From positions 1 through 7,356 of the forward strand of contig JAWOFX010000122.1 of the NCBI GenBank assembly GCA_046497275.1: a stretch of DNA of 7,356 bases, read 5' to 3'. The translations under genes and the position numbers were made by a program. Each line of letters starts with the position of its first letter. Position 1 is the first letter of the stretch. The DNA comes from Promethearchaeia archaeon. Lineage in GTDB: Archaea; Asgardarchaeota; Lokiarchaeia; Sigyniarchaeales; SOKP01. The notes beneath the pieces are model-generated. The model was not told where the DNA came from and searched no databases. It worked only from the letters and a program-made list of their open reading frames with translations. This document shows positions 1-7,356 of this stretch, one piece after another.

Positions 1-419
1 CTTCTATCGATAGTATCTTTCATTCTTCCAGAATAGGGTACAACAAACCCATTTTCACTTACCGTTTGAAGGGTTGCTAAATATTCATCAGGAACACTTC
101 CCTCATCAACTGCAAGATTTCTGAGTAACGTTAAAATGAATGAATAATCTACATTTTTTGGGCATCGTTCTGTACATCTATGACACAGAGAACAAGTCCA
201 GATTGCATTACTATTTAATATTTTATCTTTTAAGCCCAGTAGTAACGATGCAACAACTCTATGAGGTTGGAGATCAATATATTCTGATACAGTACATCCA
301 GAACTACATACTCCACATTGAATACATTTTAATAATGTTTTTTCTCCAACTTGTTGGGTAATTTGGTATCGTAGATTATGATCCAATTCTTCAGATTTTA
401 TACTTTCTCCTTCTGTCAT
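1..419 (-). CDS. hdrC: Heterodisulfide reductase subunit C-like 2x[4Fe-4S] protein (3'-truncated by the left window edge)
   Basis: Manual translation from ATG at 419-417 is open to base 1 (139 full codons): MTEGESIKSEELDHNLRYQITQQVGEKTLLKCIQCGVCSSGCTVSEYIDLQPHRVVASLLLGLKDKILNSNAIWTCSLCHRCTERCPKNVDYSFILTLLRNLAVDEG... It has two CxxCxxCxxxC motifs, the HdrC-typical 'IWxC..C..C..RCP..V' and 'LRNLA..G' segments, a strong SD and a position directly downstream of hdrA. Confidence 0.92.
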   Translation of the reverse strand, partial: MTEGESIKSEELDHNLRYQITQQVGEKTLLKCIQCGVCSSGCTVSEYIDLQPHRVVASLLLGLKDKILNSNAIWTCSLCHRCTERCPKNVDYSFILTLLRNLAVDEGSVPDEYLATLQTVSENGFVVPYSGRMKDTIDR

Positions 420-421
420 AT

Positions 422-3400
422 TTAAGCCACCTCCTTAGATTTTTCGAGTTTGATTTTATCACCTGTCTTACCTAAAGGCCCTAAATTTTTTATTCTGTCT
501 GTAAATTCAGTGACAACATTTGCAAATCTTTTACCTTCACTTGCAGATACCCATTCAAGATGAAGACGATCTGGATTTATACCTATTTTATCGAGAATTT
601 CTTTAATTTCATGGTAGCGTCTGAGAGCATCATAATTACCTTTCATATAATGGCAATCGCCAAGATGACATCCTCCAATCAACACCCCATCAGCACCTTT
701 GAGAAATGCTTCTAATATATAATGTTTAGGTATGCGACCCGAACACATTACTCGAATTGGTCGAATATTAGTAGGATACTGAAAGCGACTTACACCACAT
801 GTGTCTGCTCCCGCATAGCTACACCAATTACATAAAAATGCAACAATTCGAGGTCGTTCGTCAACAAACTCTCCTTTTGTCGCTTCAAATATCATTGGCG
901 TTAGCTGATTATCCGCAAAATGACTCATTGTTATTGCTCCCGCGGGACAGGCAGCAGCACAATCACCGCATCCTTTACATAAAAGTGGATCTACTTGTGA
1001 AATTAACTTGTGTCCATCAAATTTCACACCAATTGCCCCATAATTGCACACTTCTTCACATTTTTGACAGGCGATACATAAAGCAGGATTAACATGAGAG
1101 ATCAACGGTTCATTCTCTACAATCCCAGATGTAAGGGGGATCAATGCATGCGCTGCGGCACCTCTAGCTTGAGATATTGAGTCTGCGATTCCCTTTGGAG
1201 AATGCGCAGTACCTGCGAGAAAAATCCCATCAGTAGCGAAATCAACAGGTCTTAATTTTACATGTGCTTCTAAAAAGAACCCATTTTGATCAATGGGCAC
1301 TTTCAATAGTTCTGAAAGCCGTTTATTATCATATGAAATCAAAGGAGTAGATAACACTACCCGATCAGCTTTCACATCAAGGTTAATTTGGGTCAAAATA
1401 TCTTTCACCTTAACATGAATGTCACCATTCTCTAACTCTACATCTGGATATTCGTTAAATCGGATGTAATTTATATTTTCTCTAGCTTTCCAATAATACT
1501 GCTCTTCATCAGTTCCCACACGAATGTCTCTATACATAACATAAATATTAGAGTTAGGATAATTTTCTTTCACATATAGGGCATGCCTTATAGATTCTCC
1601 GCAACAAATTAATGAACAATAGGGTACTCCTTTTTCAGGATCCGTTTGTCTTGACCCAACGCAGTGTATAAACACAATATCTTCCCCATCCTCTAATTGA
1701 TTGTTTTTTAATTTATCCGAAAGTTCTAATTGCGTCATTATACGGTCGTCTTGTCCATAATGATACCATCCCTCCGGTTTATATTCATAAGCACCAGTAG
1801 CTACAATGATTACACCCACATTAAATTGTGTGGTCTTATTATTAGCGTTATTTTTAACCTTAATAGCAAAATCTCCAATGGAACCTTTTACATCAACAAC
1901 CTCGGAATTCAGATGAGTCTTGATCTTTTTATAATTATTGTATTCTTCTAATTTCTGTTGGAGAAATTCTTGTGAGTCTATCCTGTCTTCATTTATTTTA
2001 TAGATTAAATTCAATTGTCCTCCCAATTTGTCATCTTTTTCTACTACATAACACTCAAATCCCTTATCTGCAATTTCCATAGCTGCTGTCATACCCGCAA
2101 TCCCTCCACCTACTATTAAAGCTTTTGGAACTACATCTCCTCGAATCTTAAATTCGGGTTTTAGATTTTTTACTCTACTAATACCCATTCTTATTAGATC
2201 CTTTGCTTTATCAGTTGCTTTCTCTTCATCGTCCATATGTACCCAAGAGTCTAATTCACGAATACTTACAAAATTAAATAAATATTCATTCAATCCTGCT
2301 TGTCTGATTGTTTTTTGAAATAAAGGTTCATGAGTTCTTGGAGTACATGCGGCAACCACCACACGGTTTAAATCATGCTCTTCAATTTTTTCTTTTATTA
2401 TATCTTGAGTTAAACTAGAGCAAGTATATTTGTTATCCATCGCAAAAACGACATCGGGTAGAGTTTTTGTGTATTCTACTAATTGAGGAATATCCATATA
2501 TCCCCCAATATTAATACCACATTGACATATAAATACACCGATTCTCGGTTCGTCTATCGATCTCACATCTTTAAGTGGTGGAAGTTCAACTTTTTGCTCC
2601 TCCTCACTAAGCGGATCAATATGAAGAGCTGCTAATCCAGCAGCGCCGCTCGCTTTTGCCACTGAATTTGCGATATCATCTGGAGATTGACATGACCCTG
2701 TCACATATATTCCTCCTCTTGTGGATTCTAAATCCTCAGTAGAATCTTTTGTTTTATAAAATCCTAATTCATTTAATTCGATACCAAGAATATTAGCAAG
2801 TTCTTCTGCTCCTTCATTTGGAATTACCGCATTTGCTAAAACTACTAAATCGAATGTATCAGTTTCAACTTCTCCAGTATCAAGATTTGCATGTTTCACA
2901 ATTAAATCGTTAGTATTTGCATCTTCTCTGACATCTCCAGGAATTCCATGAGAATATTTTAAGCCATATTCATTTTTCGCTCGTTCAATGAATTCTTCTT
3001 GATTTTTGCCGATCACTCGAGTATCATTAAAAAAGATGGTAACCTCTGTCTCTGGTGAATGTTCTCTCGTAACCACTCCTTCTTTGGCCATATACATACA
3101 GCAAAATTTTGAACAATAAGGACATATATCCTCATTTCTTGAGCCAACACAACCAACAAAGGCAATATTATGAGCGTGTTTCCCGTCTGAGGGGCGTAAT
3201 AGTTCACCCTCAGTGGGACCAGAAGCACTTAAAAGCCGTTCGTATTGCATCGCAGTGATTACATTTGGATACTCACCATAATGATAACGAGGTAGAATGC
3301 TTGGATCTATTAAGTCATAGCCCGTAGCTACGATAATAGAACCTACATTATAATCTAAAATTTCATCTTCCATCTCAAAATTTATAGCTTCTGCTTCACA

Positions 3401-3913
3401 TGCATCTAAGCATAATTTGCACGCATCTTTTGTCAAATATAAACACTTTTCAGCATCAATGGTCGCTTTTCTTGGAACAGCTTGCGGGAATGGAATGTAA
3501 ATCGCTGTGCGGTTGCCCATAGCTTCTTCAAATTCACTCGGAATTTTTTTCATAGGGCATACTCCAGCACATTGTTCACATCCCGTACACTTATCCCAAT
3601 CAACATATCGCGCTTTTTTTCTTATTTTTACCTTAAAATCTCCCGCTTCACCGTCTAGTGCTTCAAGTTCAGAATATGTTAATAATTCCACATTTGGATG
3701 TCTGGCAACCTCTACCATCTTAGGAGCCAAAATACATATTGAACAATCTAAAGTTGGAAAAGTCTTATCTAATTGAGCCATTCGCCCACCAATTGAAGGT
3801 GTCTTTTCTATCAATATAACGCGGTATCCTTGCTCTGCTAAAGAAAGTGAAGCTTCTATGCCAGATATGCCACCGCCAATTACTAGTACAGAATTCAATT
3901 TTTTATTTGTCAT
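422..3913 (-). CDS. hdrA: Tandem HdrA-HdrA flavoprotein fused to a C-terminal ferredoxin and an MvhD ([2Fe-2S]) domain; FAD/Fe-S subunit of an Hdr-type electron-transfer complex
   Basis: 1163 aa. Module 1: GGGISG (aa13-18), LDKTFPTLDCSIC, an inserted ferredoxin (CTGCEQCAGVCP...CKLCLDAC), CVGSR (255) and CSKFCCMY. Module 2: HdrA N-terminal domain RIGVFICQCG (457)...YTCS...AACTPRTHEPLF, then GGGIAG (602), CVGSR (751) and CSLICC. C-terminal ferredoxin CIACQKCEEVC / CKGCGDCAAACP (946-990). MvhD domain from aa1022: RIVAFLCNWCSYAGAD...RVMCSGR...GADGVLIGGCHLGDCHY...LEWVSASEG. Confidence 0.95.
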   Translation of the reverse strand: MTNKKLNSVLVIGGGISGIEASLSLAEQGYRVILIEKTPSIGGRMAQLDKTFPTLDCSICILAPKMVEVARHPNVELLTYSELEALDGEAGDFKVKIRKKARYVDWDKCTGCEQCAGVCPMKKIPSEFEEAMGNRTAIYIPFPQAVPRKATIDAEKCLYLTKDACKLCLDACEAEAINFEMEDEILDYNVGSIIVATGYDLIDPSILPRYHYGEYPNVITAMQYERLLSASGPTEGELLRPSDGKHAHNIAFVGCVGSRNEDICPYCSKFCCMYMAKEGVVTREHSPETEVTIFFNDTRVIGKNQEEFIERAKNEYGLKYSHGIPGDVREDANTNDLIVKHANLDTGEVETDTFDLVVLANAVIPNEGAEELANILGIELNELGFYKTKDSTEDLESTRGGIYVTGSCQSPDDIANSVAKASGAAGLAALHIDPLSEEEQKVELPPLKDVRSIDEPRIGVFICQCGINIGGYMDIPQLVEYTKTLPDVVFAMDNKYTCSSLTQDIIKEKIEEHDLNRVVVAACTPRTHEPLFQKTIRQAGLNEYLFNFVSIRELDSWVHMDDEEKATDKAKDLIRMGISRVKNLKPEFKIRGDVVPKALIVGGGIAGMTAAMEIADKGFECYVVEKDDKLGGQLNLIYKINEDRIDSQEFLQQKLEEYNNYKKIKTHLNSEVVDVKGSIGDFAIKVKNNANNKTTQFNVGVIIVATGAYEYKPEGWYHYGQDDRIMTQLELSDKLKNNQLEDGEDIVFIHCVGSRQTDPEKGVPYCSLICCGESIRHALYVKENYPNSNIYVMYRDIRVGTDEEQYYWKARENINYIRFNEYPDVELENGDIHVKVKDILTQINLDVKADRVVLSTPLISYDNKRLSELLKVPIDQNGFFLEAHVKLRPVDFATDGIFLAGTAHSPKGIADSISQARGAAAHALIPLTSGIVENEPLISHVNPALCIACQKCEEVCNYGAIGVKFDGHKLISQVDPLLCKGCGDCAAACPAGAITMSHFADNQLTPMIFEATKGEFVDERPRIVAFLCNWCSYAGADTCGVSRFQYPTNIRPIRVMCSGRIPKHYILEAFLKGADGVLIGGCHLGDCHYMKGNYDALRRYHEIKEILDKIGINPDRLHLEWVSASEGKRFANVVTEFTDRIKNLGPLGKTGDKIKLEKSKEVA
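428..436 (-). promoter_or_regulatory. Shine-Dalgarno site for hdrC, embedded in the last codons of hdrA-mvhD
   Basis: The minus strand reads AAGGAGGTG, ending 8 nt upstream of the hdrC ATG. It is complementary to the 16S 3' anti-SD (CACCUCCU). Confidence 0.8.
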
Positions 3914-4431: not shown

Positions 4432-5112
4432 GTGAAAGTGCTCGTTTCAGGTCCAGTTCAGAGCGGGAAGTCTGCCTTTATAAAATATTTAGATCCTAAT
4501 GCATTAAATGTTGAAGCGAAAGGAGCAGATAATAAAGTATATACTGTAGGAATGGATTTAGGATCAGTATCTTTAAATGGATATAGAGTATATTTATTTG
4601 GAACTCCAGGACTCTTAAGATTTTCTGTGATGAGAGATATCGTTTCTAGTGGATCTGATGGAGTTATATTCATTTTTGATTCTGCAGCACCCGAAAAAGA
4701 TACAGAAGCAATACAAATTCTAAACTCAATTCGGAAATCGTTAGGGCCAAACATTCCAATCCTTTATCTCGCCAATAAACAAGATTTAGAAGAGGCGAGA
4801 TTTCCAGAAGTGGTCAAAATACAGAATGATTTACCAGAAAATAGTAAAATTGTCCCCGCTAGTACTAAAACCGGAAAAAATATTGAGGAATCCTTAAAAT
4901 ATTTGGTCAATCAAATATATGATAACTACAAAAGTCTTATAGAAATACTAAAAAATTATGAAAATGATCTTGAAGGGTTGAGAGAACAATTGAATAAAGA
5001 TCCAACTGAAATGAAGGATTTTTTAAATAAATTAGAAGTAAAACGATTTATAAAATTAAATCGAGCTACTAAAACCTATAAAGTTAAAAATGGATTATCT
5101 TTTCTAACTTAG
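4432..5112 (+). CDS. MglA/CvnD-like small GTPase with a C-terminal winged-helix-like extension
   Basis: GTG start, 226 aa. G1 GPVQSGKS (7-14), G2 region TVGMDLG (38-44), G3 FGTPG (56-60, the MglA/CvnD-type variant of DxxG), G4 NKQD (115-118), G5-like ASTKTG. Residues ~163-226 (SLIEILK...LEGLREQLNKDPTEMKDFLNKLEVKRFIKLNRATKTYKV) fit a helix-helix-recognition helix-beta wing pattern. Confidence 0.88.
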   Translation: MKVLVSGPVQSGKSAFIKYLDPNALNVEAKGADNKVYTVGMDLGSVSLNGYRVYLFGTPGLLRFSVMRDIVSSGSDGVIFIFDSAAPEKDTEAIQILNSIRKSLGPNIPILYLANKQDLEEARFPEVVKIQNDLPENSKIVPASTKTGKNIEESLKYLVNQIYDNYKSLIEILKNYENDLEGLREQLNKDPTEMKDFLNKLEVKRFIKLNRATKTYKVKNGLSFLT

Positions 5113-5194: not shown

Positions 5195-7356
5195 ATGATA
5201 AAATCGAAACGATCTCTGATTTTCATATTCTTTATTTCGATATTATTGACCCTGAATATACTTTTTACTGTGATTGCGTTTCAATTATTTCCTAGTTATG
5301 GTGGCTTTAATCGGCAAATCCTTTTTATCAAACCTAATGATAATACTAACCAAGAGGGATATTTCATTATGCTTGATGAATTGAGTCCAAAAGCACAGAA
5401 ATTTGACATTGATTGGTTATTGCATAGTAGAGGAGACCTTAAAATAGCTGATGATAAACAATCAGTATCGTTTAATGTCCAAAGTTATCTTTCAAATGAT
5501 AATGTCACTTTAAATGCAACCTTCTTGGAAGAAATAGACGATATCTCAAGTGATGAGGGGATTTTTTGTCCAAAAAATTATGATGAGGGAAATAATTATG
5601 TTGACATTGATACTACATACATTAAAGCTCGGTATTCGGGATCGAAGAATCCCTTAATGGCAACAGTTTTGTATCCGAAAAATGATTCCGATTCCAGTCA
5701 ACAAATCCCCGAAATTATTAGTCTGAGTAATGGATTAAAAAAAATTCGTGAACATGATTTTTTATTCTATCAGAATACGCGGTCCTTAGTGCAGTTTATT
5801 AGTCCAGATATCGAATTTAATGGGGAATTGTTTTTCATACGAAGAAATGCGACTGATTCAACGAAGATCGCATATTGCTTTCTCCAAGAAGCCAACTATT
5901 TAAAATTCGATAATAACGTAACATTCCAATCCTCAACTCCAGTAGATAATATTTTAATAACCTATTCCAATAATTCCCAAATTTCTGGATATATCAACAG
6001 CCAAAATGTTAAAGTACAGATTTATAGTCCATTTACACCTGAAATGATAAGGATTAATGGGATTAATTCATCAATATCTTATTCTGAAAATATTGTTACT
6101 TTATCTGTGAATGATTCTTGCTCGTTTGTAATAAGCGATTCAGATGAATATTATAATCCAGAGAAAAATGAATTAACTTCCTCCACGGTAATGCTGTCTA
6201 TGCCAACAAAGGATATATGGGGTATTGATATGGATGTATTTACAGACTTGACCCATCCCTATATTTTATATAATAGTACTGAGTTGGAAGAGATAAGAAC
6301 TAAGATCTCAGATCCCAATAAACCATGGTATAATTGGACAAATGATTATATTGGGGATATATCAATAGAATTATCTCGTGATCCTGACTTTTATGAAGAT
6401 GATCAAAGAAGGCATGCTGTTTATAAATTAGCGCTTAGTTTTGCGTTTGATAATAATGCAAGCGTGTTAAATAAACTGAAAGAATATCTACTTGATATGG
6501 GTTCTATTACACATTATTCTGCAGATTTAAGAAGGGCGAAAAGCGTTGAAGCATATGCGATTGCTTTCGATATGATATACCAAAATCTTAGCTCCAATGA
6601 ACAAAACAATATATACAATTTGCTTTACGAACATACTGAACCCTTAAAGCGAATGGATTTATATCATCGCAATAATCATCGGGTTGTTGATGCGGGTGCT
6701 TTAGGTTTGTCTGGATTAGTGCTTCAAGATGAAGAAATGATTAATATCGCCACGGAAACATGTCTTGATTACTATTATAATCAGAATCCCGCTGATGGAG
6801 GGTCATTTGAAGGATATTCATATATGGCTTTTGCTTTCTTTCATATGAGTCAGTTCAATACTGGATTAAAGAGATTAGGTGCGTTTAATTTCTACGAGGA
6901 TCCGAAAATTCTGGCATCTTATGATTATATGGCAGAAACCTTAGGACCATTAGGAATGCCTGGAAGTTTTGAGGATTGCACATTTGATAAAGATATTCAA
7001 GAGGTACTTTTATTTACCGCGGCACAAGTGAATGAGAGTTATCCCGAGAAAGCAGAGAAATATCAATATATTTGGGAACAGAGACAGAATAATTCCCAAT
7101 ACGAGAGTACATCTGATTTTGGATATTTATTAGGAGGTCAGCCTTCATTCCATAGAATTCTCTTATATAATTTAAATGATACAATTCAAGGTAAACCATT
7201 TGAAAGTCGTCGAGAAGTATGGAAAGAATCATCTATGGCATATTTACGATCGGGTGATGAGGAGGGATTATTTATGCCTTTCAGTTGTAAGAATTACGAT
7301 CAAAACCATCCCCATCAAGATGAAAATAGTTTTGAATTATGGGCATATGGAGCATA
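5195..7356 (+). CDS. Membrane-anchored or secreted heparinase II/III-like (DUF4962/alginate-lyase-type) polysaccharide lyase, 3'-truncated by the window edge
   Basis: Manual translation from ATG 5195 gives 720 codons with no stop. It begins MIKSKR followed by a hydrophobic stretch (aa8-32). Family motifs: HPYILY (354), NNH (493-495), DGGSFEGYSY (534-543), and LRSG...HPHQDENSFELWAYG (705-719), which matches the HxHxDxNSF signature of Hepar_II_III domains. Substrate and PL family cannot be assigned by eye. Confidence 0.85.
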   Translation, partial: MIKSKRSLIFIFFISILLTLNILFTVIAFQLFPSYGGFNRQILFIKPNDNTNQEGYFIMLDELSPKAQKFDIDWLLHSRGDLKIADDKQSVSFNVQSYLSNDNVTLNATFLEEIDDISSDEGIFCPKNYDEGNNYVDIDTTYIKARYSGSKNPLMATVLYPKNDSDSSQQIPEIISLSNGLKKIREHDFLFYQNTRSLVQFISPDIEFNGELFFIRRNATDSTKIAYCFLQEANYLKFDNNVTFQSSTPVDNILITYSNNSQISGYINSQNVKVQIYSPFTPEMIRINGINSSISYSENIVTLSVNDSCSFVISDSDEYYNPEKNELTSSTVMLSMPTKDIWGIDMDVFTDLTHPYILYNSTELEEIRTKISDPNKPWYNWTNDYIGDISIELSRDPDFYEDDQRRHAVYKLALSFAFDNNASVLNKLKEYLLDMGSITHYSADLRRAKSVEAYAIAFDMIYQNLSSNEQNNIYNLLYEHTEPLKRMDLYHRNNHRVVDAGALGLSGLVLQDEEMINIATETCLDYYYNQNPADGGSFEGYSYMAFAFFHMSQFNTGLKRLGAFNFYEDPKILASYDYMAETLGPLGMPGSFEDCTFDKDIQEVLLFTAAQVNESYPEKAEKYQYIWEQRQNNSQYESTSDFGYLLGGQPSFHRILLYNLNDTIQGKPFESRREVWKESSMAYLRSGDEEGLFMPFSCKNYDQNHPHQDENSFELWAYGA

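Follow-up and report, generated by a model that had tools for sequence, protein, structure and literature searches.

A heparinase II/III-like enzyme of an Asgard archaeon with a circularly permuted chain and putative membrane anchors at both new termini

The gene and its contig

The stretch of DNA analysed here, termed the window, is the entire 7,356 nucleotide (nt) contig JAWOFX010000122.1 (G000:C146), part of a 188-contig draft genome of a Promethearchaeia archaeon. An open reading frame on the forward strand begins with ATG at position 5195, 82 nt beyond the preceding gene, and is still open at the contig end after 720 codons (5195–7354). It encodes a lyase-like protein of the heparinase II/III-like superfamily in which a beta region normally found at the C-terminus is located at the N-terminus. 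The parts of the gene are listed below (aa, amino acid residue; TM, transmembrane; pLDDT, predicted local distance difference test).

5195..7354, + strand: permuted lyase-like gene, first 720 codons; the closest orthologue, P0002 (1117 aa), shares 94% identity with it along all 720 aa
5216..5284, + strand: TM1, signal-anchor helix, aa 8–30; seen by hydropathy and as a model helix at 5–31 with pLDDT ~90, and present in all full-length members
5300..6151, + strand: relocated beta block, aa 36–319; matched by BLASTP to the canonical-order relative P0050 and by profile and model to the alginate lyase structures 6JP4/6JPH; 88 canonical proteins carry it after the toroid
6152..6241, + strand: linker from old C-terminus to old N-terminus, aa 320–349; placed by the aligned ends of P0050 and nearly unstructured in the model
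6242..7183, + strand: (alpha/alpha) toroid, aa 350–~663; HPYIL at 6254–6268, NNH at 6671–6679, EGYSY at 6809–6823
7184..7354, + strand: start of the central beta-sheet domain, aa 664–720; HPHQD at 7307–7321; in orthologues it reaches ~aa 787 and is followed by TM2

The full protein is estimated at ~1117 aa, with the window encoding aa 1–720. The terminal 172 codons of the gene are found at the start of another contig of the same genome (G000:C66:3–518), and this tail is 91% identical to the TM5–TM7 region of the orthologue. Approximately 225 codons (about aa 721–945) are unassembled; these comprise the rest of the beta piece, TM2, a loop, TM3 and part of TM4.

A preliminary description of the stretch had reported a hydrophobic segment followed at once by a beta-rich block, with the helical toroid coming only thereafter, and this layout is borne out. 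The hydrophobic segment is at aa 8–30 (nt 5216–5284), and the stretch YGGFNRQILFIKP...GYFIMLDEL...FDIDWLLHS (YGGFNR...FDIDWLLHS) that follows it is at aa 35–78 (nt 5297–5428). The motifs HPYIL, NNH, EGYSY and HPHQD are at aa 354–358, 493–495, 539–543 and 705–709 (the last at nt 7307–7321). The order of strands before helices is that of the AlphaFold2 model of P0002, as assigned by DSSP (below).

Full-length orthologues

A search of 5.8 billion proteins yielded 42 relatives, most of them 1075–1150 aa in length, and the full-length orthologues among them span 94–28% identity. Named hosts are Promethearchaeota, Lokiarchaeota, Helarchaeota and Hodarchaeota, and one record is labelled Bathyarchaeota. 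The orthologues display a TM helix, the beta block, a 30-aa linker, the toroid, the beta piece with the HxHxD motif (to ~aa 787), a TM helix and five more TM helices, in this order. The P0002 model has a mean pLDDT of 85.7 and a predicted template modelling (pTM) score of 0.80. It shows a helix at 5–31, exclusively beta strands at 38–314, helices at 361–657 (the helical part starting from 339) and strands at 681–779. The linker region to ~349 is mostly unstructured in the model, with one bridge and two four-residue helices from aa 339.

Beyond the lyase fold, P0002 has a hydrophobic helix at 793–817, then a basic loop of low confidence at 818–850 and short amphipathic helices to ~875. Its C-terminus consists of five long hydrophobic helices, as judged by hydropathy and the model. 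The preliminary description had predicted an end of the reading frame 100–150 aa after H705, and this did not hold. The fold ends ~82 aa past H705 in the orthologues, but ~410 aa follow H705 altogether, the excess being a family-specific polytopic membrane domain of ~320 aa (aa 790–1117, six helices). No Pfam match to this domain was found, matches to Protein Data Bank (PDB) sequences are no better than E 0.07, and an ESM Atlas feature search gave no usable match; when shorter homologues consisting of this domain alone were sought, all that came up were fragments of the same family. The five additional helices are poorly conserved, with zero invariant columns and a mean column identity of 37%. 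Because of this, and because they have no detectable relatives, our guess is that they might serve in anchoring or scaffolding rather than in a second catalytic role.

Two short forms, P0064 (732 aa) and P0065 (770 aa), have a single TM helix after the cut rather than six. The minimal design is therefore a TM helix, the ectodomain and a TM helix. A permuted sub-form of ~990–1015 aa (P0051, P0053, P0060, P0061, P0063 and similar proteins) is without the terminal beta-sandwich (beta-block profile ~222–313).

In the orthologues, Pfam domain PF07940 (Hepar_II_III_C) is detected at aa ~700–770 with 35–42 bits, against a cut-off of 24, and PF16332 (DUF4962/DSE-like_N) matches the helical part weakly. 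The Hepar_II_III_C profile has 237 positions; ~20–100 of these are covered in permuted proteins versus 4–207 in canonical relatives.

Sequence evidence for a permutation

The closest canonical-order relative found is P0050, an uncharacterised metagenomic protein of 726 aa (Logan SRR29278628) that is 27–28% identical in both blocks. By BLASTP, P0002 350–787 aligns with P0050 26–465 (E 4e-42) and P0002 36–319 aligns with P0050 464–726 (E 4e-28). The junction between the two alignments is contiguous to within one or two residues, and the proteins share the GGFNR / LYxDxG junction sequence. P0050 reads '...LYADGGFNRNVLFVKP...' unbroken across the junction. In the permuted protein TM2 is found eight residues past '...LYNDLG', and 'GGFNRQILFIKP' is found four residues past TM1. 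At the other ends, the last residue of P0050 aligns with aa 319 and its first mature residues with aa 350; thus, aa 320–349 represent a linker that joins the old termini. P0050 differs from the permuted protein in its canonical toroid-then-beta order, a cleavable-looking signal peptide and the absence of TM helices.

Two profiles were made from 29 orthologues, A2 for the beta block (aa 31–340) and A3 for the remaining ectodomain (aa 341–795). Against all PDB sequences, A3 matches 6JP4 at 19–459 (E 4e-19) and chains of PL35, PL39, PL15 and PL17 enzymes (PL, polysaccharide lyase) at E 5e-21 to 1e-8; it also matches dermatan-sulfate epimerase (E 3.6e-9), in the toroid only. A2 matches 6JP4/6JPH at 513–764 (E 1e-6), and no other PDB chain was matched. 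Such E-values for both blocks, to one canonical protein and to one PDB chain, lie well outside the range of chance. Against 1.84 billion representative proteins, A2 gave 147 matches, which include the C-terminal part of dozens of canonical enzymes.

The proteins fetched fall into two orders. In 62 permuted proteins the beta block comes first, and in 88 canonical proteins it comes after the toroid and HxHxD segment. Among the canonical 88, the A2 profile starts right where A3 ends (e.g. 466/463, 529/525 and 476/473). Among the permuted 62, every complete N-terminus begins with a TM helix, and in almost all, six TM segments are found directly after the HxHxD piece. The features of the superfamily are present, i.e. 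a toroid with the N-H and Tyr motifs, the HxHxD segment, and the C-terminal beta continuation and beta-sandwich, the latter two relocated. The canonical linear order of toroid, HxHxD and C-terminal beta region is not found. The protein differs from its relatives in topology, not in fold.

Structural evidence

Superposition of the P0002 model on solved structures shows the same division. Residues ~350–785 fit 6JP4 5–495 with Z 22.8 and a root-mean-square deviation (rmsd) of 2.8 over 429 aligned residues (for 6JP4 the aligner printed a span of 331..1029, which extends into the TM helices). The same part fits the PL17 enzyme Alg17c at 30–510 (Z 20), the PL15 enzyme Atu3025 at 31–620 (Z 18.6), dermatan-sulfate epimerase at 36–547 (Z 17.5) and heparinase II at 34–535 (Z 16.8). 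In every target chain, the matches of the full-length model cover just the first two thirds. Sequential aligners show only the toroid and HxHxD part of the full-length model, and the beta block was therefore modelled separately. This model (pLDDT 87.8) fits 6JP4 456–770 by its aa 31–317, with Z 20.7 and rmsd 3.0 over 261 aligned residues. Weaker fits are to the C-terminal thirds of PL40 ulvan lyase (Z 13), heparinase II (481–765, Z 8.1) and Atu3025 (581–774, Z 8.0). The relocated block thus comprises the latter half of the central beta-sheet domain and, with it, the terminal beta-sandwich, both of which are C-terminal in canonical enzymes.

When the two blocks were co-folded as separate chains, the interface score ipSAE was 0.95, versus 0.00 for the best of three controls; of 80 solved complexes 58 attain the mark used for this score, as do 2 of 110 mismatched pairs. 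Between runs, ≥97% of contacts are the same, and the partner pLDDT is 92. The pass may stem from the program's memory of solved single-chain lyases, and it should be taken to indicate a similar fold and not as an independent measurement. Contacts are predicted with most confidence between aa 772–777 and aa 39–46 and between aa 746–750 and aa 72–75. From the first of these, the last strand before the cut is seen to pair with the first strand after it, as if the two had been consecutive ancestrally.

The preliminary description had proposed that the C-terminal beta region was moved to the N-terminus, beside the membrane anchor. Sequence, profiles and predicted structure agree on this: aa 36–319 map to the canonical C-terminal third (P0050 464–726, 6JP4 456/513–770, heparinase II 481–765, Atu3025 581–774), and the toroid and HxHxD piece (aa 350–787) map to the first two thirds of canonical enzymes.

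Catalytic residues

In the alignment of the A3 profile to 6JP4, H705 aligns with His405 and Y543 with Tyr239 of Dp0100, residues described as the catalytic base and acid in a 2026 review (PMC13709232). Among 36 orthologues, N493, N494, H495, Y543, H705, H707, D709 and E710 are invariant. As the His/Tyr pair and the residues of the NNH motif and HxHxD region are invariant, the superfamily chemistry, abstraction of the C5 proton from a uronic acid, is probably retained.

Two positions that appear to bind metal in relatives are changed. The Asp of Dp0100 'ASDSGY' is replaced by an invariant Asn725 (NNPGYPG), and the His of 'AEAHNV' by Ala or Ser at 745 (P0002 numbering; codon 725 would be nt 7367–7369, past the window end). 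We take these positions to be two of the three metal ligands in PL17 and PL21 enzymes. P0050 carries the same Asn/Ser substitutions at the apparent metal-ligand positions, and this branch may lack the metal site.

Relation to known enzymes

The preliminary description drew its comparison with PL12/15/17/21-type enzymes; the closest solved relative is instead a PL39 enzyme, the catalytic domain of alginate lyase Dp0100 from Defluviitalea phaphyphila (6JP4/6JPH/6JPN). Toroid, HxHxD beta-sheet domain and beta-sandwich all match, and the equivalents of His405 and Tyr239 as well as the N-H motif are conserved. The permuted protein differs by being cut at about Dp0100 residues 460–510, and by Asn and Ala/Ser in place of the 'SD' and 'AH' residues. 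In addition, Dp0100 is a secreted multidomain enzyme, whereas the permuted protein appears to be embedded in the membrane at both new termini. Among solved structures, both blocks match Dp0100 best, yet the identity is ~17% and the E-values are profile-based, and PL35 and PL15 enzymes are similarly close on the toroid; the protein is at most a candidate member of family PL39.

The other lyases of this fold, PL15 (Atu3025), PL17 (Alg17c), PL21 (heparinase II), PL35 (GAGases), PL33 and PL40, give Z 15–21 for aa 350–785 and Z 8–13 for the beta block, and all have the canonical order. We know of none, and found none, with membrane helices at the permutation site. An additional beta domain at the N-terminus of PL15 is missing from the permuted protein.

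Dermatan-sulfate epimerase 1 of humans is anchored in the membrane by C-terminal helices and abstracts a proton from a uronic-acid polymer by means of a His/Tyr pair. Its structure (6HZN) has the same fold (Z 17.5), but the order is canonical, the TM helices are C-terminal only, and it is more distant in sequence than the bacterial lyases. With respect to the type of event, one parallel is that of the GH70 glucansucrases, which are natural circular permutants of GH13 enzymes. Here too the chain start is rotated and the catalytic fold conserved, but the fold and enzyme class are others and the new termini do not form a two-sided membrane anchor.

Interpretation

The gene very probably encodes a heparinase II/III-like enzyme, closest to PL39, whose chain has been circularly permuted in nature; it would be doubly anchored at the cell surface and probably has C5-proton chemistry. 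In canonical enzymes the order is toroid, beta-sheet part a (with HxHxD), part b and terminal beta-sandwich. Here it is TM1, part b, beta-sandwich, 30-aa linker, toroid, part a, TM2 and TM3–7. The new termini lie at a turn of the canonical fold between two paired strands ('...LYxDxG' / 'GFNR...'), and entry into the membrane on both sides would replace this turn. TM1 passes directly into the first strand of the beta block. It is preceded by K3, K5 and R6, and TM2 is followed by a basic loop; the positive-inside rule therefore suggests that the N-terminus and the 818–885 loop are both cytoplasmic. The 750-aa catalytic domain would then be outside the cell, clamped at one point of the membrane by two helices. 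There it may abstract the C5 proton from a uronic-acid polysaccharide, with beta-elimination the most likely outcome and C5 epimerisation a less likely one. The analysis demonstrates the permutation, the fold and the conservation of residues; the topology, activity and substrate are inferred.

The superfamily fold and catalytic motifs are already known; the domain order and the cut site, probably clamped in the membrane, appear to be new. In the literature searched, no circular permutation was found described for polysaccharide or alginate lyases of this fold, nor any link between heparinases and Asgard archaea, and no circularly permuted member of the superfamily is known to us. An extended proposal can be put forward tentatively, although we consider it unlikely as a whole: that no natural circular permutation preceded this one in the lyase/epimerase superfamily, that the two-helix clamp holds the catalytic canyon at a set orientation over a family-specific seven-TM module, and that the enzyme processes a uronic-acid polymer of its own surface, in the manner of AlgL or dermatan-sulfate epimerase, and does not forage.

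Several points weigh against the proposed permuted, membrane-clamped enzyme. The window itself holds aa 1–720 only, and all statements beyond aa 720 are read from orthologues. With the 720-aa fragment, which is cut 11 residues past D709, and with its parts aa 30–340 and 340–720, Pfam gave only chance-level matches (CbiG linker, NOL9 cupin); the family was recognised because orthologues and profiles were used. The adjacency of aa 36 and aa 787 is suggested by the co-fold contact list and homology. Two apparent metal ligands are substituted, and the surroundings of the active site thus seem to differ from those of relatives. In maximum likelihood trees (FastTree, IQ-TREE) of the re-ordered and concatenated blocks, the permuted proteins do not form one clade when the tree is free (nodes are weak, branches are long and two state changes are needed). 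Monophyly is not rejected by the approximately unbiased (AU) test (p 0.313), and one permutation event would be the parsimonious account. Finally, none of the neighbourhood is conserved family-wide among the five loci read, and it gives no guide to the substrate.

Natural circular permutants reveal which parts of a fold tolerate re-threading, and this is a clean case in a large three-domain enzyme. The junction is placed within a residue or two and there is a canonical relative at 27–28% identity, so that direct comparison is possible. With both new termini formed by membrane helices, the protein would be a double-anchored ectoenzyme whose active site has a fixed position relative to the membrane. 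There is also a lesson for annotation. Pfam covers ~80 of 237 profile positions and none of the beta block; domain models truncate on permuted proteins, and these are therefore labelled 'hypothetical' or 'membrane protein of unknown function'; other database records read 'heparinase II/III domain-containing'. For protein engineering, a tolerated cut site and linker are provided in an industrially relevant lyase fold. For Asgard biology, the family adds a surface enzyme of patchy distribution whose probable targets are acidic polysaccharides.

Alternative explanations

A different role has been considered for the same permuted protein, that of a C5-epimerase or other non-degradative processing enzyme acting on a uronic-acid surface polymer of the cell (cf. 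dermatan-sulfate epimerase, AlgL/AlgG), and not that of a foraging lyase. This is possible, if on balance doubtful. The shared fold with human dermatan-sulfate epimerase 1 is in keeping with it, but bacterial lyases are nearer in both sequence and structure. Permanent clamping to the membrane would fit a cell-bound polymer. In one lineage (L007 5320–7858 and 12867–16987; L009 14804–17437), an MBOAT acyltransferase, one or two UDP-glucose/GDP-mannose dehydrogenases and GH172 are found near the permuted gene, the dehydrogenases within ~3–5 kb and the MBOAT gene adjoining it at one locus, which hints at a link to uronic-acid polysaccharide metabolism. The genome of the window also has at least two such dehydrogenases. 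Taken together, these neighbours and the dehydrogenases of the genome itself make it possible that the enzyme acts on an acidic polymer of the cell's own surface. However, four other loci, the window included, do not share this neighbourhood, and the two dehydrogenase loci are syntenic with each other and count as one observation.

Two alternatives concern the permutation as such. The first is a duplication, in which a complete beta region would also be present in the unseen C-terminus, making the block at the N-terminus an extra copy. Circular permutants are thought to arise via tandem-duplicated intermediates, and the window, which ends at aa 720, does not by itself speak against a duplication. 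It is nevertheless very improbable. In the 94%-identical orthologue the fold stops at ~aa 787 and leads straight into a TM helix and five more, and the gene tail on contig C66 of the same genome is membrane domain. A search with hmmsearch at full sensitivity detects exactly one beta-block copy in each of the 62 permuted proteins and a second copy in none of the proteins fetched. Likewise, none of the 62 has a second R.ILF/WLLH block, and neither the duplication nor the lack of C-terminal homology that the preliminary description had named as grounds for abandoning the permutation is found.

The second holds that the N-terminal block is an unrelated accessory domain, carbohydrate-binding or Ig-like, and that the enzyme has lost its C-terminal beta domains. 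Residues 30–340 have no significant Pfam match, beta-sandwiches can converge, and the beta domains of several unrelated glycosidases give Z 5–8. The Z of 20.7 to 6JP4 456–770 is far above these generic beta-sandwich values, and the block is homologous in sequence to P0050 464–726 (E 4e-28) with a contiguous junction. Its A2 profile matches the C-terminal part of dozens of canonical enzymes, and its strands interleave with the HxHxD piece in the co-fold. An accessory domain is accordingly highly unlikely.

Least credible is the view that the order arose in assembly or gene prediction, through a chimeric contig, a misplaced start or the merging of two genes. The gene is indeed broken at a contig end of a 188-contig draft, but over 60 sequences of independent projects (NCBI, JGI, ENA, Logan) show the same order within a single open frame, on contigs of up to 282 kb, and the N-terminal TM helix and start region are conserved among the orthologues.

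Distribution and neighbouring genes

Within the phylum, 301 genomes were sampled, and 10 of them gave a match at E≤1e-10. These include eight of 68 genomes of the window's family (plus the genome of the window itself) and one of seven in a second family. One genome of the window's family has two tandem permuted paralogues on the reverse strand (G180:C82:47078–49471 and 50630–53002), with 26–27% identity to the query. Canonical relatives that carry names are bacterial (Paenibacillus, Planctomycetota).

Directly upstream of the lyase-like gene, at 4432–5112 (+), the window encodes a 226-aa small GTPase (Ras/Arf-like) with a C-terminal extension. On the opposite strand are a 1163-aa protein in which two HdrA-like flavoprotein modules are fused to a C-terminal MvhD/FlpD domain (422–3913, −) and, after it, an HdrC-like 4Fe-4S protein (3–419, −). 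The GTPase-then-lyase pair and the divergent Hdr genes are not found in the more distant loci; they recur in the contig of a 79%-identical orthologue (L005, 7220–7900 and 8001–11354). There the Hdr unit extends further, to genes for a CCG-domain (HdrB-like) protein, a DUF5981 protein and MTHFR.

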